From positions 1,006,069 through 1,070,068 of the forward strand of contig CAVRET010000002.1 of the NCBI GenBank assembly GCA_963720265.1: 64,000 nucleotides of DNA. Direction: 5' to 3'. This document shows positions 17,123 through 49,650 of this stretch, one piece after another. How positions within the stretch are numbered: position 1 is the stretch's first letter; every line of letters begins with the position of its first letter. The DNA is from an uncultured bacterium. GTDB taxonomy: Bacteria; Patescibacteriota; Saccharimonadia; UBA4664. A program made the translations under genes and the position numbers. Below the pieces are notes generated by a model that saw only the letters and a program-made list of their open reading frames with translations, was not told the DNA's origin and did no database searches.

Positions 17123-17980
17123 ATGGCGCACTCGCTTGTTGCGACCCAACAATCCGGATGGGAGTTCTTCATGACAGAGCCGCAGTGGGCTGCAGGTAGC
17201 AGGGACCATTCCGAGGGCGACCAAGTGGACGAACTGGTACGTACGCTTCAAGGTGACATTGAGGCTATATCAGACTTTCAGGACGAGGTCTGGGCGCTGA
17301 TCGCGAAGCTTCGGGGGCCACGGGCCGGAATGGGGAAGGGTCAGGCGGAGGCGTTTGTCCTCCGGCTGATGGCTGTTACCCGCATATCAGTCAAGTCAGA
17401 TGCCGCCGCTATTAAACTGGTGGTTCGAGCCTGGCTTGAGGCGGCGCAACGACCCGCCGGCCACGAGTCTGCCGACGCCCCTAAGGATTACTCAAGGCTG
17501 TGGGCACCGCCACAGGGGTCCGGATTTGTGCGTAACCCGGCAGGAGTCTGGCTACACCGCGTGCAGGGCTTGTCACGTGTCCGGCGGGAAGAGGCCAAGC
17601 TCTCGATTAATGCCGAGATGGCGAGGATAACCCGTGCGCCTGAGTTCCCGCGCGAACACGTTGGGGCACTCGTGCTACACGTGTTCGAAACGCCGCTCGT
17701 GCCGAGTGACGGCTACCGCAGGATGTCTGACAAGCTGGCCGCGATTCACTGGACACTCGCCTATATGGAAGGCGGCCAGCGGCCGGACTGGGAGCCGTGC
17801 ATTCTGTGGCACGGTTCGAAGAGTTTACAAGAAACAGGGTGGAGCGGCACGCACAGGCTGCTCCACCCTGAGGTTTTTTGGATCCCGTATAAGAGTCTTG
17901 TATGCAATAATTCGTCGGGCTTTAAGGGTACCACTGGTTGGCGCGGGGCCTTGCGCAGTCCCTGTGGGCTAAAGACTTAG
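17123..17980 (+). CDS. hypothetical protein (GC-rich block), divergent from the sigma-factor gene
   Basis: 285-aa ORF with no recognisable motif. Confidence 0.35.
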   Translation: MAHSLVATQQSGWEFFMTEPQWAAGSRDHSEGDQVDELVRTLQGDIEAISDFQDEVWALIAKLRGPRAGMGKGQAEAFVLRLMAVTRISVKSDAAAIKLVVRAWLEAAQRPAGHESADAPKDYSRLWAPPQGSGFVRNPAGVWLHRVQGLSRVRREEAKLSINAEMARITRAPEFPREHVGALVLHVFETPLVPSDGYRRMSDKLAAIHWTLAYMEGGQRPDWEPCILWHGSKSLQETGWSGTHRLLHPEVFWIPYKSLVCNNSSGFKGTTGWRGALRSPCGLKT

Positions 17981-18580
17981 GCCTCGTTCGAGTTCTTCGA
18001 GTGCCGCATCAAAGGCGGCGATGGAATCTAGCCGTTTGGGGCGGCCGCTGTCTGCGATGAGGGCGGCAATGCCTGCACCAATAATGGCGCCGGCGAGGTT
18101 TCTGACTCTTAGATCGGTGGGGTCTTTTTTTGACCTGTGGGCGATAAGGGCAGCAAAGAGGTCGATGGATCTGGCCATTTCGTCGAGGACCCTGGCCCTT
18201 AGTTCCGGAATGGTGCGGATAAGGGCGAACCGCTGCATTTCCTGTTCGTACTGACTTGGCTCCAGACTGGCAAACGATTGCCGGATTGCACCCCTTAAGG
18301 CCGGGATGATATCAAGGTTTGCCGGTTGGTTACGAAAGGCTTCAATGATGATCGGGTCGAGCGAATCATACATGACAATGGATTCTTTGGTCTCAAAGTA
18401 GCGAAAGAACGTGGAGGGAGAGACTTCTGACTGTTTTGCGATCTCATCAACCGTGGTTTTGGCATAGCCCTCACTTGCAAACAGCCTAAGAGCAGTTTGC
18501 TGGATGTGTCGCTTGGTCCTTAGCTTCTTAGCTTCTCTTAGTCCTGACATGGGTGTTAGGCAAGAATAGCACTGCGACAA
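17969..18580 (-). CDS. TetR family transcriptional regulator
   Basis: 203 aa. N-terminal HTH RHIQQTALRLFASEGYAKTTVDEIAKQSEVSPSTFFRYFETKE. Overlaps the 3' end of the MFS gene, indicating an operon. Confidence 0.8.
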   Translation of the reverse strand: MSQCYSCLTPMSGLREAKKLRTKRHIQQTALRLFASEGYAKTTVDEIAKQSEVSPSTFFRYFETKESIVMYDSLDPIIIEAFRNQPANLDIIPALRGAIRQSFASLEPSQYEQEMQRFALIRTIPELRARVLDEMARSIDLFAALIAHRSKKDPTDLRVRNLAGAIIGAGIAALIADSGRPKRLDSIAAFDAALEELERGLSL

Positions 18581-23051: not shown

Positions 23052-23441
23052 TTATTTTTTGTCGGCTATAGAATGTCGCTGAATCCACCCCGCTACTTCG
23101 GCTAAGTCTGGGTGACTCGTAGCCAGATTGAGTGTATATTCTTCAAGCTCTTGATTGGTGGCCGTTAGATCATAGCCATTTATAACGAGGAAGCGGTACA
23201 TGGAGACGACTGCAGTGCGCTTATTGCCGTCGAGGAAGACGTGATAATTACAAAGGGCCTCATATAGCGCCGCCGCTTTTGCAAATATATTGGGATATAA
23301 GTCTTGACCGCCGAAGCTGGCCTTGGGCTTCTGTGCAATAGATTTGAGCAGCTCAGGCTCGCGGACACCAAGAGAGCCACCGGTGGCCTCAATGATCTGG
23401 TCGTGTATGGCCGCGATGTCGGTGGTTTCAAGGTGCCGCAT
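23052..23441 (-). CDS. doc: Doc/Fic family toxin
   Basis: 129 aa. Fic motif HVFLDGNKRTAV (HxFx(D/N)GNKR). Confidence 0.85.
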   Translation of the reverse strand: MRHLETTDIAAIHDQIIEATGGSLGVREPELLKSIAQKPKASFGGQDLYPNIFAKAAALYEALCNYHVFLDGNKRTAVVSMYRFLVINGYDLTATNQELEEYTLNLATSHPDLAEVAGWIQRHSIADKK

Positions 23442-23668
23442 TACTTGTCAGCTAAAGCTTTAAGCGCGGGTCGATAGCGGTCAATGGCTTGGGCTGTCCA
23501 AGCAGTGAGTTCTTCGTCGACCGAGACAGAATCGGTGACCGGTACGAGACGAAAGATCGGCTTGGAGCGCTTAACAACTATAAAAGTTTCGCCGAGACCA
23601 GCGCGCTCTGCGACAGCCTCGGTGTTTTCTCGCAGTTCTTTGAGCCCGATAATAGTAGTCATAATCAT
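23441..23668 (-). CDS. phd: Phd/YefM-type antitoxin
   Basis: 75 aa. Overlaps the doc start by 1 nt. Typical small antitoxin fold signature (IGLKELRENTEAV...IVVKRSKPIFRLVP). Confidence 0.7.
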   Translation of the reverse strand: MIMTTIIGLKELRENTEAVAERAGLGETFIVVKRSKPIFRLVPVTDSVSVDEELTAWTAQAIDRYRPALKALADK

Positions 23669-24563: not shown

Positions 24564-24941
24564 CTAAGAAGTTCCTACAACAGTTATGCCATACTGCTCA
24601 AGAAATATGTCGCTTGTAAGTAGTGCACTTCTTTCTACGCTGGCCTGGGCGACAAGCATTCGATCAAATGGGTCGTGGTGAAGCATTGGTAATGATTCGA
24701 AGGCGCGCAAATAGCTGTCGGCTAGCGAAAGTCGACGAAATCCAAGGTTGCGTACCGTTTCAAGCAATTCAGGGATTGGAGCGAGCTTAGAAGTAGAGAT
24801 CTTGATAGATATTTCCCACAGTGAAGCTTCCGAGATTGCAATTTCCTGAGCGCCTTCAATCGCTCGTCGCGCAGCCACCCCAAGTCGTTCGTCATCGTCT
24901 AGTATCCACAGCAGAGCGTTGGTATCTAGGATTAGCTTCAT
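24564..24941 (-). CDS. vapC: PIN-domain toxin VapC
   Basis: 125 aa. LILDTNALL N-terminal Asp plus further acidic residues typical of PIN. Confidence 0.85.
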   Translation of the reverse strand: MKLILDTNALLWILDDDERLGVAARRAIEGAQEIAISEASLWEISIKISTSKLAPIPELLETVRNLGFRRLSLADSYLRAFESLPMLHHDPFDRMLVAQASVERSALLTSDIFLEQYGITVVGTS

Positions 24942-25192
24942 TACGGTTTGTTGGTGCTTTCCTGAAACAGCTGCAAGATCTCCACGTCCGCTTTATCGTA
25001 GTCGTCAGAGTATTTGATTTTGCCCTTCAGCGCCCCGAACAATTTGATTTTACTTGGCTCCTCAAGCGGCTGGAGCTTGAAGCGCGTCACCTTGCCCCCA
25101 CGACGAGTAATGATTACCTCATCACCCTCAGCGGCTGCGTTCAGAAGCTGGCTAAGATTCGTTTTTGCCTGATGTACGTTTGCGGTAGTCAT
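24941..25192 (-). CDS. vapB: type II antitoxin (Phd/YefM-like) paired with VapC
   Basis: 83 aa. MTTANVHQAKTNLSQLL...EVIITRRGG. Stop/start overlap with vapC. Confidence 0.7.
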   Translation of the reverse strand: MTTANVHQAKTNLSQLLNAAAEGDEVIITRRGGKVTRFKLQPLEEPSKIKLFGALKGKIKYSDDYDKADVEILQLFQESTNKP

Positions 25193-29243: not shown

Positions 29244-29317
29244 AATTAATACATTCTGGAAATACTCCATCTGGAAAAATGTTCCAGAGATACTGGCTGG
29301 GGCGGCAGTTCTGGAAC
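29244..29317. promoter_or_regulatory. cluster of four TCTGGAA heptamers, including the inverted pair CTGGAA-N5-TTCCAG, about 60-130 nt upstream of the T4SS-like operon
   Basis: ttctggaaa (29244), tctggaaaaa (29260), ttccaga (29272, inverted), ttctggaac (29309). Seen directly in the sequence. Confidence 0.3.
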
Positions 29318-29374
29318 CCAGGTTTTTAGAATGCTGATGGTGGAGCAGTAATTTGTCCATGAAAGCCCTCGTGC

Positions 29375-29776
29375 TTGGTTTTTGCCTTGCTTGTGCTATT
29401 GTCTTGCCTATTAGCTTCGAGTGAGGACTATCTCGTGAAACGAATTCTCAGTCTGCCGTATCTGTCCGTGTTGGCCGCGTTTGCTGCGCCCTTGTTTACG
29501 GCGCACGGGGCGCTTGCGTCGGATGGTAATGTGACACAAGTCGAGACCTTTATCCGCAGTCTGATCAACGTGGTCACGGGGCTAGCCGCCTTAATTGCAG
29601 CCGGCTTCTTTGTGGTAGGAGGGCTTGGTTATATCACGAGTTCCGGCAACCCCGAGCATCTGGAGCGTTCAAAGCGGACGCTACAATATGCAGCCATAGG
29701 CCTTGCCATTACTCTCGGGGCATTTGTTCTTACCGGTATTGTCGCAGGCCTCGCTACAAGCGCGTTCGGAAGCTAG
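29375..29776 (+). CDS. VirB2/TrbC-like T4SS pilin (likely true start GTG at 29435, giving a signal peptide MKRILSLPYLSVLAAFAAPLFTAHGALA)
   Basis: Signal peptide plus two TM helices. Central motif GLGYITSSGNPEHLERSKRTLQYAAIGL resembles the TrbC/VirB2 family. First gene of the T4SS-like cluster. Confidence 0.6.
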   Translation: MVFALLVLLSCLLASSEDYLVKRILSLPYLSVLAAFAAPLFTAHGALASDGNVTQVETFIRSLINVVTGLAALIAAGFFVVGGLGYITSSGNPEHLERSKRTLQYAAIGLAITLGAFVLTGIVAGLATSAFGS

Positions 29777-29781
29777 CTTTT

Positions 29782-31182
29782 ATGGCCTTTTTCGCATCCG
29801 GCCCGGTGCTTGCAAGTATGGCCGGGGCGACACGGGTCATCGGCGCGTATGTAACACCGGTTATGACGGTGCTTGGTGGCTTTGCTGCGGTGGCGGCAGC
29901 GCTGCTTTTGGCTTACGGCGGCATCCGATATATGACGAGTTCCGGCAGCCCGGAGCGGCTTGATGAGGCGAAGCGCGTTATCCGTAATGCCTTAATTGGC
30001 CTCGGAGTTGTGATAGCGGCCGGGACGCTGGTTGCCGTTCTTGCGCACGCCTATGGCAGTCCCGCTGCGAGCGGCGGGGCGAAGCTGCCGGCTCTTGTTT
30101 CGGTGCAACCTGCACCAACTACGAACGGCCTGGTGAATGCCCTGATTGATGCAGTCACGGGGTTGTTTCGCGTTTTGATCGACCAGGCGGCACAGCCGTT
30201 TTTGTCAGCTCTGGCCTACTTCACGGATGGGACGCCGCTCATGGCTTCTAATGGAAGCGTGTTTTCGCTGTGGCTGGCTACGGTTGCCATCGCGGACGGC
30301 TTGTTTGTACTGGTTACGGCGTGCTTGGGATTTCATATCATGAGCTACGAAATGTTTGGGACGACTGAGCTTGAGTTTAAGCACATGCTGCCTCGGCTGG
30401 CCCTCGTATTCGCGGCGGTGAACACATCGATCTTTGCGATTGATGCGGTTATCGGGTTGTCCAACGTTATGATTTCGGCCGTCAGACAAGCTTTTCCAGG
30501 GGTGTCGGTGTGGCAGTCGCTTAGTACGGTTGTGAGCGCAAAAGGTGATGTGAGTCTGGCCGCCCTTTTGATTATGGTGGCGTTTTTGGTGCTTTCCGTC
30601 ATGCTCATGGTGTATTACGTCATGCGGCTCGTAGCACTGTTTATCGGGGCGGTCCTTGCGCCGATTGTTATTTTGCTGTGGCTTGTGCCGGGATTTAAAA
30701 GTTTTGCTGAAGCGGCCGCAAAGGTCTACGCCTCGACCATCTTTGTTTTGTTTGTACACGTCGTAATATTAGAGCTCGCGGCATCATTGTTAAGCGGTAT
30801 GGCGGCAAGTAGTCCAGATCATACCTTAAATCCCCTTATGTCGATGATCGTGGGCGTAGCAACGGTCCTGGCACTACTCAAAACTCAAGGTTTTATGAAC
30901 CAATTGTCGTATGTGAGTCTGGGCCCGCAAACGGCGGCGAAGCTGGGCGGTTTATTTATGAATGCGTTTAGCTACTATGCCGGCAAGTCGGCCGGTGCGA
31001 CTTCTAATCCGGCTTCAGAGCGCACCTCGCGGCGGGGCGTATGGCCGGATTTCGGATTTGAGCCGAGTCCGGCACCGACACTGGCACTGGTACCGGTGCC
31101 GCAGACTACCCGGCCGGGTACGGCACGCAGCGGGCGACCTAGTTCCGGGGGAAACGTACCAGAAGAAGGAGAAACAGCGTGA
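29782..31182 (+). CDS. VirB6/TrbL-like polytopic membrane protein with an N-terminal VirB2-like pilin domain
   Basis: 466 aa. The first ~100 aa repeat the pilin architecture (GGIRYMTSSGSPERLDEAKRVIRNALIGLG is similar to the upstream pilin motif). At least 6 further TM helices and a hydrophilic C-tail. Confidence 0.6.
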   Translation: MAFFASGPVLASMAGATRVIGAYVTPVMTVLGGFAAVAAALLLAYGGIRYMTSSGSPERLDEAKRVIRNALIGLGVVIAAGTLVAVLAHAYGSPAASGGAKLPALVSVQPAPTTNGLVNALIDAVTGLFRVLIDQAAQPFLSALAYFTDGTPLMASNGSVFSLWLATVAIADGLFVLVTACLGFHIMSYEMFGTTELEFKHMLPRLALVFAAVNTSIFAIDAVIGLSNVMISAVRQAFPGVSVWQSLSTVVSAKGDVSLAALLIMVAFLVLSVMLMVYYVMRLVALFIGAVLAPIVILLWLVPGFKSFAEAAAKVYASTIFVLFVHVVILELAASLLSGMAASSPDHTLNPLMSMIVGVATVLALLKTQGFMNQLSYVSLGPQTAAKLGGLFMNAFSYYAGKSAGATSNPASERTSRRGVWPDFGFEPSPAPTLALVPVPQTTRPGTARSGRPSSGGNVPEEGETA

Positions 31183-31658
31183 GATCGTCGATTGTTCCGG
31201 CCCAGATTACCACGGTTGAAGATAAGGTGGCGGGGGCTTTAAGCTTTTCGCAGCTGGGACTCCTTGGTGCTCCAGTATTTCTGGCCGGTGTCATGTATGC
31301 CTTGCTGCCACCATTTTTCGCCGCGTCACCATATAAGCTGGCCGGTTTTTTCGCTGCTGCCGTTATATGCGGTGTGCTTGCGATCCGGGTGCGCGGACAA
31401 CTTGTGCTTACGCAAGCCGTCCGATTTGGGCGGTATAGTCTCAGGCCGCGTTTTGTCTTGTATGACAAGAACGACCTGTATCTCAGGCCCGAGCCGGTAC
31501 CGGATGCGCGCCCAGAAGTTACCCAGTGGTTATCCGAAGCGGATGAAGAGCATGCGGCTGCTCAGCGTCAAGCGGTCGTGTTCTATGAGCGGCCGACTCG
31601 CGGCCGCACTGACCACATCAGTCAAGGAGGACGGCGTGTCCGCACTACCCAAAAATAA
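31179..31658 (+). CDS. VirB3/PrgI-like small membrane protein
   Basis: 159 aa with two TM helices. Immediately upstream of, and overlapping, the VirB4 N-fragment, as is typical for VirB3 ahead of VirB4. Confidence 0.4.
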   Translation: MRSSIVPAQITTVEDKVAGALSFSQLGLLGAPVFLAGVMYALLPPFFAASPYKLAGFFAAAVICGVLAIRVRGQLVLTQAVRFGRYSLRPRFVLYDKNDLYLRPEPVPDARPEVTQWLSEADEEHAAAQRQAVVFYERPTRGRTDHISQGGRRVRTTQK

Positions 31659-32244
31659 CCGCTCATCGAGGCGGCAGATCCGGATCCAGGATGTGCGCGA
31701 CGGGATCCTTATGCTGCCGGATAACAACTACCGGGTAATCCTTGCGGCTTCGTCGCTTAACTTTGAACTTAAAAGCGAAGACGAGCAGGACGCTATTATC
31801 GATGCGTTTAAGAGCTTCTTAAACTCGCTGCCGTGCCCGGTGCAGTTGCTCGTACGCACGCGCGAGCTTGATGTTGCCCGGTACCTGGACGGGTTTCGTG
31901 AACTTGAGGGCGCAGAGAGTGAAGGCGTCTACCGGGCGCAGATTGCCGGATACCGGGCGTTCGTACAAAGCCTGGTTTCAAACAACAAGATCCTTGCGCG
32001 GCGGTTTTACGTGGTAGTCGGCCGGACGGCCACCGACAAGGAATCGTTTGAAGCGGCTGGCGAGCAGCTTATAACCGACGCCGATATCGTAGCAAAGGGC
32101 TTAAGCCGGCTAGGCATTCAGACGCACCGCCTGACAAGCCTTGAGGTACTCAATTTGTTTTATAGCTTTTACAGTCCCGATGGCGCCAAGCGACAACCGC
32201 TGACGCCTCTTATCATGCAGACGCTTCGAGATGGGTACTTGTAA
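31636..32244 (+). CDS. VirB4-like ATPase, N-terminal fragment. Start inferred at GTG 31636 with AGGAGG 5 nt upstream; the track ORF 31264-32244 starts too early.
   Basis: RQIRIQDVRDGILMLPDNNYRVILAASSLNFELKSEDEQDAIIDAFKSFLNSL matches the VirB4/CagE N-domain. Ends at TAA 32242-32244, in the same frame as the downstream ATPase ORF. Confidence 0.55.
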   Translation: MSALPKNNRSSRRQIRIQDVRDGILMLPDNNYRVILAASSLNFELKSEDEQDAIIDAFKSFLNSLPCPVQLLVRTRELDVARYLDGFRELEGAESEGVYRAQIAGYRAFVQSLVSNNKILARRFYVVVGRTATDKESFEAAGEQLITDADIVAKGLSRLGIQTHRLTSLEVLNLFYSFYSPDGAKRQPLTPLIMQTLRDGYL

Positions 32245-32250
32245 GGGGAA

Positions 32251-33990
32251 ATGATGGAACGGTTTTACGAAAGATTTACGTTTAAAAAGAGACCTACTTC
32301 CACCGTAGGGCGCCGGCAGGCGCTCGCTAACGGCGAGCAGGACGTCATGGATATCATCTCCTATGCCGGGATGGAGGAGCGGGCTGGCTATCTTGTCATT
32401 GACGGGCGGTATGTGCGGACGCTGTTTATCTCCGGTTATCCTTATGTCGCGACATCGGGATGGCTTGGTAGTCTCGTCTCGTTTAACCACAACGCCGATA
32501 TCACGTATCACATGACGGCTGTTGCGGCAGCGCAGGCGTTGCCCAAGCTGCACCGCAAAATTACGGAAATGGAATCAACCAGACGGGCCATGATTCGGGC
32601 CGGTAAGATCGTGGGGGCGGAACTAACGGACCCGCTCGAGTCGGCCATGGAACTTAGGGACAAGATTATGCGCGGGCAGGAGAAGTTGTTTCAGGTGTCG
32701 ATTTATGTGGCGCTGTCCGAGGCCAGTTTGTCCGAGCTTGATAGGGTGACGAGACTGCTTGAAACAGAGCTCGGGGCGCGGCTGTTTTACACGAAGGTGG
32801 CGAGGTATCAGCAGGCTGAAGGGCTGCAGTCGGTGCTGCCTAGAAGCGAAAACGTGCTGGCCCAGCGCAGGAATTTGGATAGCTCAACGGCGGCTTTGAC
32901 ATTTCCGCTCGTGTCATCTGAGCTCGTACAGGAATCAGGCATTTTATACGGGGTCAACAAGTCCAACAACTCGCTTGTCATTCTTGATAGGTTTAGTTTG
33001 CACAATGCCAACAGTATTGTATTTGCACAGTCCGGCAGCGGTAAGAGCTACGCCACTAAGGTGGAGATTTTACGGCAGCTTATGCAAGGCGTGCGGGTGA
33101 TCGTGATTGACCCGGAACGGGAATATAAGCTGCTCGCCGATTCGGTCGAAGGATCATATATCAAGCTGTCGGCCAGATCCAGCGCCAAGATTAACCCGTT
33201 TGATCTTGCAACAACTGTCACTTTGGCTGATCATGTGACGGAACACATTCAGGAACTGACTGCAGTCATCTCGCTGATGGCGGACGGTCTTAACGCGCGG
33301 GAGAAAGCCGCGGTGGATAAGGCCTTGGTGCGGGTGTATAAAGCCTGCGGCAAGCTGACTCCCCTGTTGGGTGATTTGTATGACGAGTTTAAGCGGCAGG
33401 GGCAAGAGGCGTTATGCGAGCGGCTCGACAAATACCTTACAGGGTCTTTGGCCGGTATCTTTAATGAGCAAACTAACATCAGCCTCGATAACCGGCTGGT
33501 GGTATTTGATATCAAGGACCTGCCGGAATCAATACGCCAGATCATGATGATGATCGTGGCAAATTTCGTGCAAAACGAGGTTAAAGCCAGACCTGCGAAG
33601 CGGATGCTTGTGATTGATGAGGGCTGGTTGCTTTTGGAACATGAAGAGAGTGCTCGGTTTGTGACGGGTCTTGTCAGGCGCGCCAGGAAGTATTACCTCG
33701 GCGTTTCGATTATTTCGCAGCAGGCCAGCGACTTTTTGCGCAGTGACTGGGGCCGCGCGATTGCTTCTCAAAGTGCGCTTAGGATTTTAATGCGGCAGGA
33801 TACGACAACGATTCGGCAAGTGGCTCACGAGTTTAACTTAAGCGAGTGGGAGCAGAGTTTTCTTTTAACCTGCGAGCGCGGGGATGCGCTTATGATCGCC
33901 GACCAGAACCATGTAGCGGTGAGGGTCGTTGCGTCGGATAAAGAACATCCGCTTATTACGACGAATCCGGCCGAGGTATACCGGCATTGA
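32251..33990 (+). CDS. virB4: VirB4/TrbE-like T4SS ATPase, C-terminal (NTPase) portion
   Basis: 579 aa. Walker A AQSGSGKS. Walker B-like hhhhDE (RMLVIDEGW). AAGGGGAA SD 5 nt before the ATG. Confidence 0.85.
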   Translation: MMERFYERFTFKKRPTSTVGRRQALANGEQDVMDIISYAGMEERAGYLVIDGRYVRTLFISGYPYVATSGWLGSLVSFNHNADITYHMTAVAAAQALPKLHRKITEMESTRRAMIRAGKIVGAELTDPLESAMELRDKIMRGQEKLFQVSIYVALSEASLSELDRVTRLLETELGARLFYTKVARYQQAEGLQSVLPRSENVLAQRRNLDSSTAALTFPLVSSELVQESGILYGVNKSNNSLVILDRFSLHNANSIVFAQSGSGKSYATKVEILRQLMQGVRVIVIDPEREYKLLADSVEGSYIKLSARSSAKINPFDLATTVTLADHVTEHIQELTAVISLMADGLNAREKAAVDKALVRVYKACGKLTPLLGDLYDEFKRQGQEALCERLDKYLTGSLAGIFNEQTNISLDNRLVVFDIKDLPESIRQIMMMIVANFVQNEVKARPAKRMLVIDEGWLLLEHEESARFVTGLVRRARKYYLGVSIISQQASDFLRSDWGRAIASQSALRILMRQDTTTIRQVAHEFNLSEWEQSFLLTCERGDALMIADQNHVAVRVVASDKEHPLITTNPAEVYRH

Positions 33991-34480
33991 CGCCCAAGTC
34001 ATCATTGCCGCGGTCTCATTTAAACGCGAGATCCGGGTTGTTCTCATAACGCTTGGCGTACTGATGGCACTTCCTATTATTGTGCTTTCAGCCGCGACCA
34101 ATATTGTGGCGCTGGCAAGCCCAGGTGTTAGTTTGTATACGGGACCGGTATCCACGACCGACACCTATGCGTTCGGCAACTGCACATACTGGGTGGCATT
34201 GAGGCGCGAGCAGACCGGGCATCCGATTCCAAATACCTGGGGTAATGCCAACACCTGGGCGATTCGGGCTCAAGCAGACGGATACACGGTAGATCATACG
34301 CCTTCTATGGGTGCGATTATGCAAACCACGGCTGGACAGTTCGGGCACGTGGCCTTTGTTGAAAGCGTGGGTGCAGACGGCAGCTGGACGATTTCAGAAA
34401 TGAATTATGACGGGTGGGACGAGGTGGACAGCCGGACGCTTACAGCAGTCGCAGCTTCCCAGTTTTCTTTTATCCACTAA
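33929..34480 (+). CDS. CHAP-domain peptidoglycan hydrolase (T4SS-associated cell-wall hydrolase); N-terminal TM; start uncertain
   Basis: FGNCTYWVALRR (catalytic Cys) ... GHVAFVESV (His) ... EMNYDGWD. Overlaps the end of virB4. Confidence 0.8.
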   Translation: MRRIKNIRLLRRIRPRYTGIDAQVIIAAVSFKREIRVVLITLGVLMALPIIVLSAATNIVALASPGVSLYTGPVSTTDTYAFGNCTYWVALRREQTGHPIPNTWGNANTWAIRAQADGYTVDHTPSMGAIMQTTAGQFGHVAFVESVGADGSWTISEMNYDGWDEVDSRTLTAVAASQFSFIH

Positions 34481-34674
34481 GGTGCGAAGCGTTTTTGGCG
34501 TGTACGCGTGCGAGTCGGGAGATGGAGTTTGTACTGATCAATAGCCAACTTTAAGTTGACTCAATTTGGCTAACAGGTTGTAATCGGCTATTTGTGCACG
34601 TAAACTGATTTGGTGCAGCTTACAAGGGGCTGCATGCGCTAGCCACACTCAGGCATAACGAACGGAAGACAGGT

Positions 34675-35439: not shown

Positions 35440-35757
35440 CTTAGGGAGACGATACATCGGCCGTAGCTGACACACGAACGGCGCATTCCTGGGCCGCGCC
35501 TGCCGCGCTGACTATGCATCGACTAGCTAGACGGCAGGACGCCCCAAGTCCAGTCCCCGGTCCGGCGCCTTTATGCGGCCGGACCGGGATCGTCCCAAGT
35601 GTTTAAGGGCGAGCTTGAACATTTAGGAAGAGCGGGAGCTGTATCATTTGAACAATTCTCAAGTGTTTAAGCCTAAAAACGCCCATAAAAGCAAGGTGCC
35701 CCGCCGCATAACGCGCGGCGGGGCTGACCTTGATACTTCTAGTTGTGGGCCCAGGGG

Positions 35758-36141
35758 TTAGAGGTGGCCCGTGAGCCGAACGACCTCGTAGATCGTCCAG
35801 GCGTAGGAAGCGGCGAGCACCAGTCCGACCAGGCTCAGCAGCACGTTGCCCGTGAGGGACTTGCGCGGCCTTGTCAGGTTCGAGACGATGTTGGCCGCCA
35901 GGGTACCGATCATCACCAGGCCCGCGAGGGCGCCGATGACCACGTGCACGAGGATGGTCTGTACCGGGCTGGTCGAGTACGGGCCGCTCGAGGACCAGGC
36001 GTAGACCTTGAGCACCGTGCCGATCATGAGGATGCCGAAGGCAATCACGGCCGACAGCGCCGACTGCCTGAGCTCCGCGCCCGAGGGGCGGTTGGACTGG
36101 GCGTGGCGTCCGCGGCGTGCGGTGGGCTGGGTGGCGTTCAT
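35758..36141 (-). CDS. small 4-TM membrane protein in a GC-rich patch
   Basis: 127 aa with four hydrophobic helices. The overlapping ORFs 35603-36178(-) and 35743-36171(+) are Arg/Pro/Gly-rich and probably artefacts. Confidence 0.35.
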   Translation of the reverse strand: MNATQPTARRGRHAQSNRPSGAELRQSALSAVIAFGILMIGTVLKVYAWSSSGPYSTSPVQTILVHVVIGALAGLVMIGTLAANIVSNLTRPRKSLTGNVLLSLVGLVLAASYAWTIYEVVRLTGHL

Positions 36142-36483
36142 GGAGGGCCTTCCTGTGGGAGCCAGAACTAGATATCAAGGTTACATATACTATTATAACG
36201 CTTGTGCTTCATTTTGTCAAGGCTTGCGCCCTGAACAACCCTCACTTTCAGGCTAATACATAGAATTTCCCGAGGGCAACTTCTACCAATGTTACCTGAA
36301 GGCTCTTTTCTGCGACTAGTTCCCGGGTCAATGACGTGTACAAATTGGAAGATCGCGAAACAGGGTAGGGCGTAAGGATTACGGGGATATTTATAAAATA
36401 ACAATGGCGGAGGTGGCGGCTGCAGGGCCGAACCGATGTAGTAATGGGTCCGGCCCTGCATGGATTGGAATGGCCGGAGGCGC

Positions 36484-37050
36484 TTAGGCGACCGGGCGCT
36501 CGAAGTACTTGTAGCCCCCACGTTGGATGGTGTAGATCGGGCCTCCTTTGGCTTCAACCCCAAGTAGGTCCCGTAGCGTCGCCAGGCCCGTCCTGATGCC
36601 ATCATTAGGGTTGGGGTGACCAGGCCAGAGGATGCAGGCGATTTCCTCTTTGGTTAGGACGCGGCCGGCGTTGCCGGCCAGAAGCGCCAGGAGCTTGAAC
36701 TGGATGGGCGGGAGGTGTACTGGCTGCCCGTCGAATACGCAGGCGTGTCCTGGGATGTCGAGCGTGAGCCGGTTGGTTTCAATGAGACCCGGGATCTCGG
36801 TCAGGTCGAGCGGGACGACCCCAAATACCTTCAGCAGGCGCCGGCGTATGAGTTCGTCAACGCTTGTTTGCTGTGCGGCTGCTTGCTGAACCAGTGGCGC
36901 TCCGTGCCTCCTTAGAAGTTGAATGAACATGGCTTGGAGTGTCAGCTCGCGGCTCGTTATGTCTTGGGGCTCGGCGGTAAGGGCTGTGGATGCCATACCG
37001 TGTTGTATCCCTTCTAGGGTTGGAACATGGATAAAACGTCCGTTACACAC
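36484..37050 (-). CDS. OmpR/PhoB-type winged-helix DNA-binding protein with no receiver domain
   Basis: C-terminal LTKEEIACILWPGHP...GIRTGLATLRDLL...YTIQRGGYKYF (trans_reg_C-like). Confidence 0.5.
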   Translation of the reverse strand: MCNGRFIHVPTLEGIQHGMASTALTAEPQDITSRELTLQAMFIQLLRRHGAPLVQQAAAQQTSVDELIRRRLLKVFGVVPLDLTEIPGLIETNRLTLDIPGHACVFDGQPVHLPPIQFKLLALLAGNAGRVLTKEEIACILWPGHPNPNDGIRTGLATLRDLLGVEAKGGPIYTIQRGGYKYFERPVA

Positions 37051-37141
37051 TATATCAGAGTTTTTGTAAAGTTTCTATTCGGATGAGTGACCAAGGTAAT
37101 TATACCTTGACATCAAGTAATATCTGGATTAGTATTAAAGT

Positions 37142-37975
37142 ATGACTATTCGAGATTTTGAACGCGAGTTCCCCGACGACAATGCTTGCTTAGAGTATAT
37201 GTTCAAATTGAAGTTTGCGGATAAGCCTTGCCCGAAGTGTGGTAAGGTTAACGGCTTCTATCGCGTTCGTGCTCGCAAATGCTATGCCTGCTCAGTTTGC
37301 GGCAAGCAAGTTTCCCCAACTGCTGGAACTATCTTTCACAAGTCCGAGACACCGCTTCGGACATGGTTTTACTGCATCTTGCTCATGACCAACGCTAAGA
37401 ACGGTGTAGCGGCCCTGGAGCTGCAACGGCACTTCGGAATGACATATAAGTGCGCGTGGAGAATTGCCCGCCAAATCCGCAAGGTAATGACCGACGAGGG
37501 CGGCGTGTTATCCGGAATTGTCGAGGCTGATGAAACCTACATCGGCGGCAAGCACAAGTTTGACGAGCGTTTTAACTCTAAGACTCCGGTGCTCGGCTTG
37601 GTCGAGCGCGGCGGTTCCGTGAAAGCTAACGCCGTAAACACGGCCAGCGTCAGTAACGCTCGCAATTTCATTAACGCCAACGTAGCGGCCGAAGCCGAGC
37701 TTCATACCGATACCTCACGAATTTACGACCATGTCTCGCGGCTCAGACTGCATCAATCAGTTAACCACGCTGCCCGCGAGTATGCGCGTGGCAATGTCAC
37801 CACAAATACTATTGAGGGTTTTTGGGGTCAGTTGAAGCGCTCTCTGTCGGGGACGTACCATCATGTGAGTCCACAGCATCTACAGCATTACGTTGATGAG
37901 TTCGCGTTTCGCTACTCTCATCGTCACGATGTCCGTCCTCTGTTTTACGCTGTGGTTGATCGGACGCTAGAATAG
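37142..37975 (+). mobile_element. IS1595-family (ISXO2-like) transposase gene
   Basis: 277 aa. N-terminal zinc ribbon CPKCG...CYACSVCGKQ and an ISXO2-like DDE region. A fragment of a related copy lies at 22061-22246. Confidence 0.8.
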
Positions 37976-38074
37976 CGCGGTCAAGCGTCGTCCGAAAGCG
38001 GCGTTCGTCGATTGGCGCGTCTTTATCGTCATTCATTGCAAGGCTCCTTGATTCTACAGTGATAATACCAGGCA

Positions 38075-38638
38075 TTACTGATTAAGCTGCTTTATTTCCG
38101 CCGCCACGGCCTCTATAGCCGTGGTGCCCTGCTGCATTTCGCTTCCGCCTTGCGTAATTAGGCCAGTATCCATACCGGCTACGCCCGATACACAATCTTG
38201 GGCACCCGACTCCCATGAGGCCAGACCCGTGCTCCAGTTCTTCTCCATGGAACTATCTGGAATTGCCGGGTCCGACTGGGCGATTGTGACTTCAGTCTCA
38301 ACTTGCTGGCAGTCATTGGACGAAGCAGCCATGTTTTCGTTGTTGGCATCCGACCGTAGCTTGCCCAGATCAGTGGCAAGAATGCTACTTACTGGTTCAC
38401 CGTACTTGGTAAACCAAGCATCTACCTGTTGGGTCGTCGAACTTACAGCCGGGGCCGGGGTTGGTGTTGGAGTTGACGACGAGGCCGTGTTGGTACTTTG
38501 CGAGTTGTTACTGGCAGCTCCCACGATCATAAATACGGCCAGGAGTGCCAAAACGACAGTCCATACCGGATGGCGCTGAAACCAGTTTTTCTCTTTAGGC
38601 TGCGGGCTCTCCACGAAGTATCTCCTTGGTAGAGGCAT
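38075..38638 (-). CDS. membrane-anchored extracytoplasmic hypothetical protein (N-in TM, S/T/P-rich linker)
   Basis: 187-aa ORF. Confidence 0.45.
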   Translation of the reverse strand: MPLPRRYFVESPQPKEKNWFQRHPVWTVVLALLAVFMIVGAASNNSQSTNTASSSTPTPTPAPAVSSTTQQVDAWFTKYGEPVSSILATDLGKLRSDANNENMAASSNDCQQVETEVTIAQSDPAIPDSSMEKNWSTGLASWESGAQDCVSGVAGMDTGLITQGGSEMQQGTTAIEAVAAEIKQLNQ

Positions 38639-38671
38639 TATAGCGCAGAAATGAGCGTTTTGGAGCTATGG

Positions 38672-39439
38672 CTAATCGGATTGGATAGGAATTACGTCCA
38701 GCTCCGTTGTTGGTACTTCGGTAATGCCGGACTTGCTGATATGCCAGGCGAATATTTGGCCGCCGATAGTTTGTGGGTAGCCGTCCAGCCTTTGCTTTGT
38801 TACAGATTCTTTCATTGCTCTTTGGATTATCCTAAGAGCCGATTTCGGTGTCAGTCTAACGTCCCTTATTCGTTGGTCGAGAAAATCATCAGCTTGTTTG
38901 TTGTTACCTATGCTGCAGAAGTTCCCCTCGACCAGAGTTACCTTGTAGCCGTTTGCCTCGTCATCAATATGGTATATTTCAACTTCGCCATCTACGCCCA
39001 CTCCTGCTATCAGAAGCTGCATTGATGCCTGGCGGTCGCCTGCGGCTTTCGTCTCATCCACAAGGCGTTTTGTAACACGGGCGGCCTTTCTTGCCACGTC
39101 TTCAACTGAAGCCATCGGATTGCCCTCGCAATAGCCCTGCAAGAACGCATTTATGTTATCAGCTCGCTCCTCGCGCATATAAACCATGGTTCGGCTGAGC
39201 ATTATGCGCTCTGAGACGATGAAAGCTTTGGGGTGCGTATCAAGATATGATAATTCGCCGGTCTCATCGCTGATCCTTTTTGCCAAACCATCGGAGGCAA
39301 CAGTTACGCCGTGACACTGTTTGATGTTTGTTGCCAGTGTCATTGTATCGAGTCGTCCTTTAGGCGCAAGTATTATATCAACATTATCACTTGACGTCAT
39401 GGTACAATCGCCGTGACCAACTATTGCTTGATCGGCCAT
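38672..39439 (-). CDS. hypothetical cytoplasmic protein
   Basis: 255-aa ORF with coding-like composition and no confident motif. Confidence 0.45.
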   Translation of the reverse strand: MADQAIVGHGDCTMTSSDNVDIILAPKGRLDTMTLATNIKQCHGVTVASDGLAKRISDETGELSYLDTHPKAFIVSERIMLSRTMVYMREERADNINAFLQGYCEGNPMASVEDVARKAARVTKRLVDETKAAGDRQASMQLLIAGVGVDGEVEIYHIDDEANGYKVTLVEGNFCSIGNNKQADDFLDQRIRDVRLTPKSALRIIQRAMKESVTKQRLDGYPQTIGGQIFAWHISKSGITEVPTTELDVIPIQSD

Positions 39440-42134: not shown

Positions 42135-44024
42135 CTAGCGGGTGAGGAGTCCGCCCCATTCGACGACGGTGAAGCCAGTACGGGCGGGCTTGGTGAAGGT
42201 CTGAGGTTGCATTGAGATGGGGGCAGAGAGGCCCTTGGCGTCGAGGAAGACCCTGATGAGTGTTTGCGGCTGGGGCGAAATGCTAAGCGGTGCCAGCTCA
42301 TTCATTTGAGCAGTGTTCAGCCAGGATAGACGCACATAGGGGGTGGATGGCAAGCGCGGTCCCCAGTACGCTATGAAGTCACTGGCCTCCTTTTGGTTTA
42401 TTCCTTGGGCGGCGAGCTGGGTAAGGATCGTGGATATAGCCTTATTCGTCGGAACGACCGAACCTTGGGTAATGAGCGGATAGGTGCCGTAGCCGGTGCC
42501 CTCCCAATATAGCGATGGGTAGTTTTGGCCCTGGTAGGTGAGATCGCCATTCGGGCGGGCTAACACATTACGCCAGCCGGAGATAGGATAGGCGGGATCT
42601 GAATTTGTTACGTTCGCACCAACGGCCACATTGACGTTTTCGGTATGGGCCGGATACAGGTAGATGACCGGCTTACCGCAGCCACCGTAAGAATACAAAT
42701 CGGAACGCTCATAGAGCACATACTCTCCGAGGCTATTTTTGGCAACGATGACGGCATGATCGGTGTTAATTTGCGACGGTGTGAGGGCGTTGCCAAGCAG
42801 ATTCTGCCCGTTGATCGTGGCAAAGAGTGGGCTGTTTTGGGGCAATTCGTAGATGGTTTCATTGCCCGGGCCAAATCCAGCGTATTCGAGCGAACTCGGA
42901 GAGACGTCCGCTAGTGTCACATACCCATCTGAGCCGCAACCAAACGTCCCGCTCAAGTAGGTCTTGAGATTATCCCCGTCTGTAAACTCAATGGACGGAG
43001 AGTTGGTGGCTGTGAGAGGGTCGGTGGGAAGATATTCGGCTGCAAAGACTCCGCCGACAACCGCGTATATTTCTTTGACGCTGTATGCTGATTTAGATTG
43101 GACAGTTACTTCGTAGTAGGTGGTATCGCCGATGGTACCGAGCTTGGCGATTTGCGAGGAGGGGGTTGACTGGTAGTAGGCGCCACGCAGGCCGGTCAAG
43201 CTCGCAATGAAATAGCCGTCAGGACCAGCGTAGTCGTCCGCCAGGTGTATGGCCAGACCTGAGACGATCGCGTTTTGAGGCAAATCGAGGGCCGCAATGG
43301 TATCCCATGTATTAAGGGTGACGTTTGTCTCAAGCGAATCTTCGGTCTGGTTGATTTGGCCCTTATTGGAGGGGATGCCTGGATTTAATGCGTCGTTGTA
43401 CAGACCTAGAATTTCGTAGCGAGCCGGGGTGGTTTCAATCGCGATATACCAGAACGTCTGCATCGGATGGTCGTAGTTGTAGGCGACAATAACGGGCTGG
43501 TTTTCGGCCGTGAGGCCAATTTGGACATAATGGATTTGGCTAGAGGTTATGGTAGGCGGACAGTCGGCCGTCTCGCTTATGCCGCTGCAATTTGTACCAA
43601 ACATCGCCTCTACACTCGAAGGTTTAAAGAAGTTAAGGTTTGTAAGAGGCACGGCAGCATTATATGTCTGGGCGCTGATCTCATTTGCGGGGGTTGGCGA
43701 ACTGCTTGGTGAAGGCGTGGGTGTTGGGCTCATGGTGGAGCTGGAGGACGGTTGGGGCGTATGGCTGGCCTTATGAGCAGAGGCCAGGTGATACTGCCAG
43801 AGGCCTACCACCAGTAAGAGGACGATCGCAAGCACGCTTATGCTGAGTTCGATCGTCCGATGAATTCGAGATCCTGATGGCTTCGGCGAGGCGGACTTGG
43901 GTGCAACTGCCGGTGGTAATGCCTCGGGCGCAGAGTTTGCTACGACTGGAACATTCACTTTTTTGGCTATTCGTGATTTTGCTGCCTTAGTGGCCTTAGG
44001 GTCGCCTGGTGCATTTGCGCTCAT
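42135..44024 (-). CDS. bitopic membrane protein: disordered basic N-tail, one TM, S/T/P linker, large extracytoplasmic domain
   Basis: 629-aa ORF with no confident domain. Confidence 0.5.
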   Translation of the reverse strand: MSANAPGDPKATKAAKSRIAKKVNVPVVANSAPEALPPAVAPKSASPKPSGSRIHRTIELSISVLAIVLLLVVGLWQYHLASAHKASHTPQPSSSSTMSPTPTPSPSSSPTPANEISAQTYNAAVPLTNLNFFKPSSVEAMFGTNCSGISETADCPPTITSSQIHYVQIGLTAENQPVIVAYNYDHPMQTFWYIAIETTPARYEILGLYNDALNPGIPSNKGQINQTEDSLETNVTLNTWDTIAALDLPQNAIVSGLAIHLADDYAGPDGYFIASLTGLRGAYYQSTPSSQIAKLGTIGDTTYYEVTVQSKSAYSVKEIYAVVGGVFAAEYLPTDPLTATNSPSIEFTDGDNLKTYLSGTFGCGSDGYVTLADVSPSSLEYAGFGPGNETIYELPQNSPLFATINGQNLLGNALTPSQINTDHAVIVAKNSLGEYVLYERSDLYSYGGCGKPVIYLYPAHTENVNVAVGANVTNSDPAYPISGWRNVLARPNGDLTYQGQNYPSLYWEGTGYGTYPLITQGSVVPTNKAISTILTQLAAQGINQKEASDFIAYWGPRLPSTPYVRLSWLNTAQMNELAPLSISPQPQTLIRVFLDAKGLSAPISMQPQTFTKPARTGFTVVEWGGLLTR

Positions 44025-44367: not shown

Positions 44368-44712
44368 ATGGCTCCGCCACAGGAACATGAAACAGAATAT
44401 GTTAGCTTACTCGGTACTGGGGAGGATCGGGTGGTTACTCGCTTCCGCAGGCTGGGCAAGGTGGCGATCGAATTTTCAGTTGTATACGAAGCTCTAATTG
44501 GCGGTAAGTGGCGCAAAGTTACCGCTTTCGATAACGCCCATGACTCGGAACCGCATCAGCGTATTTGCCGTATTTCGAGCCCAGAATATAAAGTACTATT
44601 CCCGTGGTTGGATTCGAACCAGGCGCTGACCGAATCCAAACGAATCATCCGCGTCAACTACCAGAAAATGCGCGCAAACTATCTATATACTAAGCATAAG
44701 AGGTTACAATGA
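44368..44712 (+). CDS. hypothetical protein, upstream member of an overlapping gene pair
   Basis: 114 aa. Overlaps the next ORF (ATGATGG). Confidence 0.4.
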   Translation: MAPPQEHETEYVSLLGTGEDRVVTRFRRLGKVAIEFSVVYEALIGGKWRKVTAFDNAHDSEPHQRICRISSPEYKVLFPWLDSNQALTESKRIIRVNYQKMRANYLYTKHKRLQ

Positions 44713-44966
44713 TGGCAATGGACAAAGCATTCATAGACAAGAACGTCGAGCTTTCCCTCGAGTTAGACAGTTACCTGGCTGAACATTTTGACTTGTATGA
44801 GCACATTCCTAACGGTGCGCTTGTGATAATTACCGTCAAAGCAGATGACGATTTCAACTCTAAGAGCCTGAGCCTTGTACGCAAGTCTCGCTCGAAGCGC
44901 CCCGTGGTTGAGGCTGAGAAGTCCGGTAGCGTTTGGACGTTGCGCCCTTTGGCGGCTGCCGCTTAG
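44709..44966 (+). CDS. hypothetical small protein, downstream member of the pair
   Basis: 85-aa ORF followed by a terminator. Confidence 0.4.
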   Translation: MMAMDKAFIDKNVELSLELDSYLAEHFDLYEHIPNGALVIITVKADDDFNSKSLSLVRKSRSKRPVVEAEKSGSVWTLRPLAAAA

Positions 44967-45389: not shown

Positions 45390-46199
45390 ATGTCAAAGCG
45401 TACCTTCTACTTGGTACCGCAACAATACCAATGGCTATCCCAGGCACTACCTGCGCCCGTAGCCAAGACCAAGCCGCCGGTGGCAAACGAAGAGCTACTC
45501 GGTGGTATTTTGTTTGTGCTCAAAACTGGCAGCCGGTGGCAGGATATCCCAACTACCATCTGTCCGCATGACCCCAGCACCTGCTGGCGCCGACTCAGCT
45601 TTTGGCGTGGCCGAGGAGCGCTGGTCGGGACTTGGCGTGAGGTTCTCGGACTGCTCGACCGGCAAGGCAAAGTCGACCTGTCACTCGGCGCGTTAGATGG
45701 TTCGCTCGTCCAGTCACCGGCTTTTAAGGATGGCACTGGTTACTCCGGCAAACACCACCGGACTGGCACCAATATTTCGCTTGTGACTGACAAACAAGGC
45801 TTGCCACTGGCCAACGTCCTGGCTAAAGGCAACCGTCATGACCCGACCAATGCCGAGGCCACTATCCGGAAGATTCGCGTGGGTGCTAAGCGGCGGGTTA
45901 AACAACTCAACGCCGACAAAGGGTACGACTCTCGTACCTTCCGGACTGCCTTACGTAAGCGCGGCATTAAGGCCAATATCCCTGAGCGCATATTCAAGAA
46001 GCGGCGCAAACGCGGCCGCAAGCCCAGTTACGACAAAGCAACGGCCAAATTCCGGGCCTTTGTCGAGCGCACTAATGCCTGGCTAAAATACTTCCGTAAG
46101 TTACGTTACCGGTGGGAACGAAAGAAAAGCATGTTTCAGGCCTTTGTTGATCTGGCCTGTCTGCTTATCTGTTTGCGGCGGGTTGGAGATATGCAATGA
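45390..46199 (+). mobile_element. IS5-family (DDE_Tnp_1) transposase gene
   Basis: 269 aa. GAGGAA SD upstream. Conserved IS5 blocks LDGS..., LVTDKQGLPL and NADKGYDS. Confidence 0.8.
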
Positions 46200-46658
46200 G
46201 TTCGTAGTCAAAAGAGGCTCAGTTGGGCCTCGATTAGTCTGTGGAAGAAGATCGAACCATTCTATTGGATCGAGTGAAGCGCCTGATGTCTTTCTTATGA
46301 GCAGCCCTTAACCCCCATGCGGGTGTCTTTCCCTAGAAGGAGCTTGCCATCCTTATGCGACAACAACAGCGACTCCAACGCTCGGCCTATCATTCATCTC
46401 AACTCCTTTCGGCTTTCCAGTAACATACTATGACCAGCCCAAATCCGCTCGACCAGTTCTTGATATAGACCGGCACGATTCACCATAGAATAATTTAAAT
46501 AGTCAAATGCAAAGCTAAAATAATTCATTGCGGGGAACCGCAGCTCTCACCGCCGTGAGAGCTGCGGTTCCGCCAGTCGCCGACGAGCACGATCGTCAGC
46601 GATCTATGTTATGCGCGCCTGATGGAACCCCCCGTTGGGTGGGGTCCGCGCGGAGATG

Positions 46659-47849: not shown

Positions 47850-48263
47850 ATGCTGTCATTACCCTGTATAAACACAACAACGACCGCTGGGTGCGATCTT
47901 GAAGGTCTCAGTGTCTCCTGTCCTGCAATGGCTTTGCAGCGACCTTGGAGAACTACTAATTTTCAGAGTAACCGGCAACCACGGCACTCTACATGAGATG
48001 GAGCACAAAAGCAATAGTTATTATGCACAAAAATCGCCCACGCAATCCCGTTACATTGCCCGAACTGCACAGCTGCCACACATTACAGTGCCCGCGGTCC
48101 CGCCCGACGACGATCGCGACCGAGGACTCGAGGGTGCGAGCCCCTCATTGCTCACCAGGGATTTATTGGCTTGATAGAGCCGCACAATTCTTAGTCATAA
48201 ATCCATGATGAAAGCCCCGGGGTTGATTTGCATGGGTGTATATGACTCATATATACAATTATC

Positions 48264-48572
48264 ATGCAGATACTTCCTGAATTTGAAGGCTTCATTTGGG
48301 ATTGGGCCGATCTTGAAAAGAACCTAATAAAGCATAAAGTTACCGCGCAGGAAGCCGAGGAACTGTTTGCGAATGAGCCGTTTGTCATTCGTCGCGATGA
48401 CCACCACTCGAACCAGCACGAAGTGCGTTTGCAAGCCCTGGGTAAAACCAAAGCTGGCCTGAAACTATTCACTGCCTTTACCATGAGGGATCATAAATTG
48501 AGGGTCATTTCTGTGAGAGATATGACTCCGAGAGAGGAGCAAGCTTATGCGAGAATTGAAAGAACTTCCTGA
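48264..48572 (+). CDS. brnT: BrnT (DUF497) toxin
   Basis: 102-aa ORF. FIWDWADLEKNLIKHKVTAQEAEELF. Confidence 0.8.
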   Translation: MQILPEFEGFIWDWADLEKNLIKHKVTAQEAEELFANEPFVIRRDDHHSNQHEVRLQALGKTKAGLKLFTAFTMRDHKLRVISVRDMTPREEQAYARIERTS

Positions 48573-49639: not shown

Positions 49640-49650
49640 CGGCTATTTTA

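Follow-up and report, generated by a model that had tools for sequence, protein, structure and literature searches.

Type IV secretion systems (T4SSs) of Patescibacteria were reportedly first noted in TM7x. Nearly all Saccharibacteria, which are minute bacteria that live on other bacteria, have such a cluster on the chromosome. In Southlakia epibionticum ML1, the only strain for which this is known, transposon sequencing (Tn-seq) showed the T4SS cluster to be essential for epibiotic growth; neither a relaxase nor a coupling protein could be recognized there (Wang et al., 2023, PMC10633639). A survey of 3,035 genomes placed the VirB4 proteins in a monophyletic clade within the MPF-FATA group, with a phylogeny indicative of vertical inheritance within classes; TrsD, PrgI, VirB6 and VirB2 were abundant, and relaxases were found in only 103 of the genomes (Quinonero-Coronel et al., 2025, PMC12102498). 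A review presents the Patescibacteria T4SS as a 'newcomer' to the T4SS superfamily (PMC12857230). For Saccharibacteria, the literature describes its function as unknown and puts forward the delivery of effectors or the acquisition of nucleic acids (PMC11665869; PMC12857230), and tubular structures, possibly T4SS pili, have been described at the parasite-host interface of an RNA-feeding patescibacterium (bioRxiv 10.64898/2026.06.21.733656). We analyzed a 64 kb stretch of contig CAVRET010000002.1 (hereafter the window) from an uncultured bacterium of the Saccharimonadia. It carries, at positions 29435–34480 of the + strand, a T4SS cluster of six tightly packed, co-directional open reading frames (ORFs). 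This cluster is very probably an orthologue of the vertically inherited, chromosomal Patescibacteria T4SS, related to MPF-FATA and lying in a relatively GC-rich Saccharimonadales genome. The system is thus already described, and the window brings no new kind of system.

The cluster has much in common with the systems of S. epibionticum (SEML1_0006-0019) and N. lyticus TM7x. All are chromosomal in a Saccharibacteria host, encode VirB2-like pilin(s), VirB6 (a probable one in the window), PrgI/VirB3 and TrsD plus VirB4, have a cell-wall hydrolase downstream of virB4, and lack a relaxase. Unlike these systems, the window has one free pilin and a second pilin-like domain joined to the VirB6-like protein in place of a six-pilin array; it also comes from an environmental, GC-rich lineage and is without the adjoining coupling protein of about 860 amino acids (aa) that its close relatives possess. 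Similarities extend to conjugative MPF-FATA systems of monoderm bacteria: the VirB4 protein reaches the cut-off of the CD1110 family from a C. difficile conjugative transposon (CTn), a TrsD-like ORF lies ahead of VirB4 as in pGO1 (pGO1/pSK41 TrsD-TrsE), and a PrgI-type VirB3 (compare pCF10 PrgI/PrgJ) and a CHAP-type hydrolase are present. The pilin resembles the Mbov_0395 family of the Mycoplasma integrative and conjugative element (ICE; Mbov_0395-0397). In contrast to these monoderm elements, the cluster appears chromosomal and vertically inherited and is not on a mobile element, and no relaxase, type IV coupling protein (T4CP), origin of transfer (oriT), PrgB-like adhesin or VirB8-like gene was recognized in the window.

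The absence of a VirD4-type coupling protein and a relaxase is shared with H. pylori ComB, B. pertussis Ptl and Brucella VirB, all of which are T4CP-independent. ComB is the DNA-uptake system of H. pylori, a species that also has the phospholipase D (PLD)-family nuclease NucT, which is resembled by the HKD protein described below. These three are diderm systems with VirB7/9/10 core complexes, unlike the cluster in the window, and no sequence-level membership was found. The NCBIfam match to the archaeal DNA importer CedB reached only 36.5 bits against a cut-off of 700.

Conservation and composition of the cluster

The comparison set consisted of 80 related loci fetched from species-representative genomes. 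The nearest homologues of the VirB4 core (best 120 of more than 7,000, and the 80 loci) belong to Candidatus Saccharibacteria/Saccharimonadales at 72–80% identity, and nearly all are labelled Saccharibacteria or Patescibacteria. The order of genes within the cluster is identical in all 80 loci, which come from different species-level genomes. The GC content of the cluster (0.548) equals that of the window (0.549). No tRNA gene and no integrase was found in the window, no long repeats bound the cluster, and an Rfam scan returned nothing relevant. Together, the shared GC content, the conserved order and the lack of a tRNA gene, integrase or bounding repeats argue for a vertically inherited chromosomal core locus with variable flanks and against a mobile island. 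The flanks behave differently from the cluster. Sixteen window-specific flank genes, including Fic, PIN/PhdYeFM, a ricin-lectin-like protein and several unknowns, were tested, and none has a counterpart near the cluster in any relative. The flank genes that do have counterparts are an upstream ORF of 161 aa and an MFS transporter, the latter distantly in two loci. Beyond the cluster, synteny with the closest relatives is absent, the 161-aa gene excepted. A first-pass annotation of the window had described a monoderm-type T4SS core in a reduced-genome episymbiont, which agrees with the relationship to MPF-FATA and Saccharibacteria, but its placement of the cluster in an island finds no support in view of the GC content, the order kept in 80 loci and the lack of an adjoining integrase or tRNA gene.

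All six reading frames are uninterrupted (Table 1). The pilin gene ends 5 nt before that of the VirB6 fusion, whose stop overlaps the start of the PrgI gene by 4 nt (GTGA). The PrgI gene overlaps the TrsD-like ORF by 23 nt, a 9-nt gap separates the latter from the VirB4 core, and the VirB4 core and CHAP genes overlap by 62 nt if the CHAP start is TTG 33929. A scan for promoter and terminator consensus sequences gave no convincing operon boundaries. The gene calls were reproduced in Logan ERR11523669, an assembly made independently from short reads of this organism, which is identical to the window over 13.3 kb but for one base in a C-run at position 34460, near the 3' end of the CHAP gene (CCC in the window, CC in Logan). 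The reading of the window yields a full-length CHAP protein that matches its relatives, whereas the Logan reading gives a frameshift.

The pilin exceeds the Pfam cut-offs for both T4SS_pilin (41.3 bits, cut-off 26.6) and TrbC (35.6 bits, cut-off 27.9), and scores 38.1 bits with the NCBIfam Mbov_0395 pilin-like family, under the cut-off of 40. Its N-terminus resembles a signal peptide (...HGALA/SDGN), it has two hydrophobic helices, and an orthologue was found in 69 related loci. The gene begins with GTG 29435 behind GAGGA, with TTG 29375 as an alternative start. The PrgI-like protein narrowly passes the Pfam PrgI cut-off (27.3 bits, cut-off 27), and its position is kept in the related loci that include it.

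The next protein in the cluster, of 466 aa, carries a second T4SS_pilin domain at residues 25–87 (29.9 bits, above the Pfam cut-off). Residues 226–366 match TrbL with 21.9 bits, below the cut-off of 25.9. Among its orthologues, T4SS_pilin was matched in 34 of 34 and TrbL in 29 of 34 (E < 0.01, best 4e-6), and most homologues carry precomputed PF18895 and PF19590 (TrbL_3) calls. The N-terminal pilin hairpin on the VirB6-like protein is conserved throughout the relatives; the fusion goes unmentioned in the published survey (PMC12102498). The protein is laid out as a helical hairpin (approximately residues 13–92), a disordered linker, a polytopic domain of about eight helices (116–406) and a low-complexity C-terminal tail. 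In the AlphaFold model (pLDDT 67.9 overall) the hairpin is confident, with pLDDT values of 80–92, but a Foldseek search of the PDB gave no significant match, the highest-probability one being R388 TrwI/VirB6 (E = 0.41, probability 0.63). A profile of the fusion protein found no match among PDB sequences. From the profiles and the context, the evidence leans towards membership of the VirB6 family. Among the related loci, VirB6 of L055, L062 and L067 has one in-frame stop each.

VirB4 is encoded in two parts. The TrsD-like ORF, which corresponds to the N-terminal domain, has a GTG start after a AAGGAGGA ribosome-binding site and ends in TAA. It aligns to positions 11–171 of the CD1110 VirB4 profile (NCBIfam, E 2.5e-10), matches TrsD/TraD of staphylococcal plasmids (NCBIfam, E 2.8e-5) and carries a precomputed TraC-like/TraC_F_IV call. 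The core covers positions 180–732 of the NCBIfam profile conju_CD1110 (341 bits, cut-off 325) and also matches Pfam P-loop_TraG (89 bits) and AAA_10. Its Walker A motif (AQSGSGKS, residues 258–265) and Walker B motif (VIDEGW) fall in columns that are invariant or at least 90% conserved in an alignment of 26 sequences, and the window protein retains all of the approximately 300 columns that are invariant in these sequences. The best 120 of more than 7,000 homologues of the core are all 576–596 aa long, and the top matches are Saccharibacteria proteins with 74–80% identity. Because the two parts lie in the same frame in the window (TAA, then 9 nt to ATG), a nonsense mutation had to be considered. 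However, the N part is a separate ORF ending in a stop in 80 of 80 loci (TAA in 35, TGA in 33, TAG in 12), and the two parts are in different frames in 77 of the 80. The universal split, the frame differences and the use of three stop types exclude a nonsense pseudogene, read-through and a recoded stop. The arrangement of TrsD plus VirB4 is the most abundant T4SS component in Patescibacteria (PMC12102498).

The last gene of the cluster encodes a hydrolase with an N-terminal membrane anchor and a CHAP domain (Pfam, 69.2 bits), which would play a VirB1-like role. Its maximal ORF begins with TTG 33929, and a conserved AVSFKREI motif demands a start upstream of 34010. The protein matches its orthologue in CP064960.1 over the full length, and the gene lies directly behind virB4 in 55 of 73 loci. 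The domain calls of the first-pass annotation (pilin, VirB3/PrgI, VirB4 with its Walker A motif, and CHAP) stood, and that for VirB6/TrbL is probably correct, the TrbL match in the window being below threshold yet recurring in the orthologues and, as TrbL_3, in most homologues. Its count of five genes did not, VirB4 being split to give six ORFs, and its start of the cluster at 29244 lies about 190 nt too early.

Coupling protein and a possibly linked HKD gene

Pfam and NCBIfam were used to scan 35 of the 38 ORFs of at least 200 aa, the other three being minor overlapping frames (17969–18580, the out-of-gene part of 31264–32244, and 55277–56095), and other genes near the cluster were covered by precomputed Pfam calls. 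No relaxase or T4CP family was found among the window ORFs scanned, a result that a very divergent relaxase could escape. When 144 T4CP/DUF8128 queries were searched against the 64 kb window with tblastn (E ≤ 1), only noise was returned. A profile hidden Markov model (HMM) built from 40 full-length T4CPs gave nothing above 5 bits against the six-frame translation of the window (hmmsearch --max). Remnants of a T4CP/DUF8128 gene in the window were rejected on these grounds. The earlier observation that there is no VirD4 or relaxase gene within 10 kb thus extends to the whole 64 kb. A 629-aa ORF (42135–44024, − strand) was considered as a hidden T4CP or relaxase and dismissed, as it has no Walker A motif and no family match; it has a hydrophobic, membrane-anchor-like N-terminal stretch and an S/P-rich linker. 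A scan of the two flanking intergenic regions for oriT-like inverted repeats found nothing of note but a 10-nt hairpin at 34542–34572.

The relatives present a different picture. A DUF8128 domain and a VirD4-like T4CP are encoded directly downstream of the hydrolase gene or virB4 in 62 of the 64 loci whose sequence extends at least 4 kb downstream. The two form one uninterrupted ORF in 68 of 70 loci, giving a protein of approximately 860 aa in which the DUF8128 membrane domain is N-terminal and is combined with a VirD4/TrwB-like ATPase (e.g., L006, 12175–14790). CP064960.1 has a DUF8128 gene and a TraG-D_C/TrwB-like gene right behind its CHAP gene. The consensus of the relatives' proteins contains a Walker A motif (GGTGNGKTT) and a Walker B motif (YVDEFQNF), and TrwB is the only match of their profile to PDB sequences. 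In the protein database, 4,424 proteins of this kind were found at E ≤ 1e-30, mostly 840–880 aa long and with the domains PF26449, PF10412 (TrwB_AAD_bind), PF02534 and PF12696; some entries are named 'type IV secretory system conjugative DNA transfer family protein'. The VirD4-like T4CP thus appears to be a regular member of the Saccharimonadales operon, which tempers the common statement that such systems lack a coupling protein. The published survey counted only 148 T4CPs near virB4 across the whole phylum (PMC12102498).

A locus without the T4CP was seen in the window and in two of the 64 others. Of these two, L047 is an additional T4SS copy of its genome, and two in-frame stops interrupt its VirB6, which marks it as a decaying paralogue. 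Judged by this comparison, the T4CP would have been lost locally or relocated in this lineage, so that its absence from the window does not characterize the system as such, and the description of the cluster as minimal in the first-pass annotation does not carry over to its orthologues. Since the T4CP adjoins the cluster in 62 of 64 relatives, its absence here gives no basis for inferring the function of the system. The same annotation had suggested a role other than canonical conjugation. Such a role is proposed in the literature, so that the hypothesis restates published work, and it agrees with the lack of a relaxase and T4CP in the window; the argument drawn from the missing T4CP is, however, weakened by the relatives.

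The 161-aa gene upstream of the cluster encodes a single-HKD protein. The protein itself has no match in Pfam or NCBIfam, but a profile of 34 orthologues matches Zucchini/MitoPLD, H. pylori NucT and PLD3 in the PDB. The family has the PLD motif HxK(x)4D(x)6GSxN. Its catalytic lysine is K in 33 of 33 aligned relatives, whereas in the window it is replaced by glutamate (HHRELAVLD). In 35 of 81 loci an orthologue occurs no farther than 10 kb from the T4SS: it lies ahead of the cluster and reads in the same direction, or it comes immediately behind the T4CP gene and reads in the other. From this neighborhood, the gene is possibly linked to the T4SS.

Surroundings in the window

The positions of the cluster genes and of other features of the window are collected in Table 1. 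The insertion sequence (IS) elements and toxin-antitoxin (TA) modules near the cluster, which had been noticed at the outset, were identified as IS1595 and IS4/5-like elements and as Fic, PIN/PhdYeFM and DUF7718/DUF5647 pairs. Neither the Fic nor the PIN/PhdYeFM pair has a counterpart near the T4SS in 81 related loci.

Table 1. Positions of the T4SS genes and of other features in the 64 kb window
Feature	Position	Strand	Family match or remark
TA pair, Fic and 75-aa partner	23052–23668	−	
Single-HKD PLD-family (Nuc/NucT/Zucchini-like) protein, 161 aa	23895–24380	+	Possible T4SS accessory, by neighborhood
TA pair, PIN and PhdYeFM	24564–25192	−	
VirB2/TrbC-like T4SS pilin, 113 aa	29435–29776	+	Pfam T4SS_pilin, TrbC
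Pilin-domain/VirB6 fusion, 466 aa	29782–31182	+	T4SS_pilin above cut-off; TrbL below cut-off
PrgI/VirB3-like small membrane protein, 159 aa	31179–31658	+	Pfam PrgI
TrsD-like protein (VirB4 N-terminal domain, separate ORF), 202 aa	31636–32244	+	NCBIfam CD1110, TrsD/TraD
VirB4 ATPase core, 578 aa	32254–33990	+	NCBIfam conju_CD1110; Pfam P-loop_TraG, AAA_10
Membrane-anchored CHAP-domain peptidoglycan hydrolase	33929–34480	+	Pfam CHAP
Trans_reg_C winged-helix ORF	36484–37050	−	
IS1595 transposase	37142–37975		2.7 kb downstream of cluster
Proteasome-subunit-like ORF	38672–39439	−	
TA pair, DUF7718 and DUF5647	44368–44966	+	
IS4/5-like element	45390–46199		11 kb downstream of cluster
PKD protein	50554–52494		Surface-type protein
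WxL-interacting-like peptidoglycan-binding protein	57423–58397		Surface-type protein
Laminin_G_3 protein	58416–59762		Surface-type protein

The Logan short-read assembly breaks at both ends of the stretch 35544–39383, inside which the IS1595 transposase lies; this stretch probably contains repeated or strain-variable DNA. A GC-rich segment at 35603–36605 has overlapping ORFs on both strands. Two 81-nt direct repeats of 90% identity, 108 nt apart, occupy 46815–47003, inside overlapping ORFs (46635–47711, + strand; 46659–47849, − strand) that have no family match. The GC skew is positive from 5 to 47 kb and strongly negative from 50 to 64 kb, with genes mainly on the + strand on both sides, and the cumulative skew peaks near 48 kb. 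The switch at approximately 47000–50000 may mark the terminus of replication or the edge of an inversion. Three tandem paralogues of about 375–390 aa with no family match (52491–57401, + strand) lie among the genes for surface-type proteins and share repeats of 119 nt (71–73% identity) and 47 nt (85% identity).

Proposed working and alternative explanations

The roles of VirB2, VirB3, VirB4 and VirB6 and the R388 structures provide an established basis for a mechanism by homology. On this basis, PrgI would hold VirB4 at the membrane, where the ATPase would have the help of its separate, TrsD-like N domain. VirB4 would extract the pilin from the membrane, and the pilin would polymerize on the VirB6 platform while the CHAP enzyme opened the cell wall locally. 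The resulting pilus or conduit would act at the interface between epibiont and host, in contact and/or the uptake of host material rather than in conjugative DNA export. Conjugative export is unlikely because there is no relaxase, as in nearly all Patescibacteria (PMC12102498). The canonical recruitment of cytoplasmic substrates by the locus on its own is also unlikely, because it has no T4CP. Unless a T4CP is encoded elsewhere in the genome, the locus alone would serve pilus biogenesis, adhesion or import, as in ComB.

Several points weigh against this interpretation. The mechanism is drawn from homology. The T4CP belongs to the operon in 62 of 64 relatives, so the ancestral system may export cytoplasmic substrates, and the window may hold an impaired copy, not a repurposed one. 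Among all the loci compared, the window has the most divergent VirB4 core, TrsD-like and PrgI proteins. In a relative-rate comparison with its nearest neighbor, L006, the window lies farther from all 80 other sequences (p-distance 0.249 against 0.207). In GC content the window exceeds each of the 81 related Saccharibacteria loci (median 0.453, maximum 0.512), and this unusually high value may be a sufficient, though unproven, explanation of the divergence. Finally, the assignment of VirB6 draws on profile matches below threshold and on a fold search that was not significant.

A fully functional exporter of protein effectors, served in trans by a T4CP encoded elsewhere, is rather unlikely. Effector delivery is a commonly proposed role (PMC11665869; PMC12592800), T4CP genes of Patescibacteria, including that of S. 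epibionticum, are often far from virB4 (PMC12102498), and the adjoining T4CP in 62 of 64 relatives indicates that the machine normally works with one. However, the distant T4CP homologue of S. epibionticum is non-essential, although its T4SS is essential (PMC12102498). The cluster might instead be a decaying or partial second copy, with a complete locus and its T4CP elsewhere in the genome, which we consider improbable. Several Saccharibacteria genomes do have two or three T4SS loci (L056/L077, on one 892-kb contig; L024/L047; L017/L039/L078; L065/L072; L068/L071), and L047, with its interrupted VirB6, is a precedent among the only two other loci without a T4CP. The missing T4CP, the lost HKD lysine and the divergence of VirB4, TrsD and PrgI would all fit such decay. 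Yet none of the six ORFs is interrupted, VirB4 has lost none of its invariant columns and the overlaps that suggest translational coupling are preserved; the extra divergence is modest and coincides with the highest GC content of all the loci, and no second copy is seen in the 64 kb window.

The notion that the cluster is the remnant of a monoderm ICE or plasmid from which a relaxase-T4CP-oriT module was deleted is extremely unlikely. The match of VirB4 to the CD1110 family of a clostridial conjugative transposon, and the presence of IS1595 and IS4/5 transposases and TA modules within 12 kb, would fit such a remnant. They are outweighed by a gene content and order shared with 80 species-level Saccharibacteria genomes at 72–80% VirB4 identity, by a GC content equal to that of the surroundings, by the lack of an integrase, tRNA gene, bounding long repeats or relaxase in the window, and by the vertical inheritance within classes in the published phylogeny (PMC12102498). 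A further proposal, speculative and unlikely as it stands, is that the Saccharimonadales T4SS consists of a core (pilin, VirB6, VirB3, VirB4 and hydrolase) and an accessory module for handling nucleic acids (the DUF8128 T4CP and, often, a NucT-like HKD nuclease). This lineage would then be a natural 'core-only' variant, with the T4CP lost, the nuclease inactivated by the change of its catalytic K to E, and the core under purifying selection.

Among T4SSs, that of Patescibacteria was the first for which a requirement by the carrier bacterium itself was demonstrated, and the system is a subject of active inquiry. The features specific to the window, loss of the T4CP and mutation of the HKD lysine, are a modest lead. 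Its value is that of a natural variant, in which an intact core is found without the T4CP that adjoins it in 97% of relatives (62/64) and with a mutated HKD nuclease possibly linked to it. Provided that the full genome confirms the absence of the T4CP, this variant could help to separate core from accessory functions. If this lineage is indeed such a core-only variant, the core function (pilus, contact or conduit) would be separable from substrate recruitment, and the presence of the accessory module would point to nucleic acid as the substrate.

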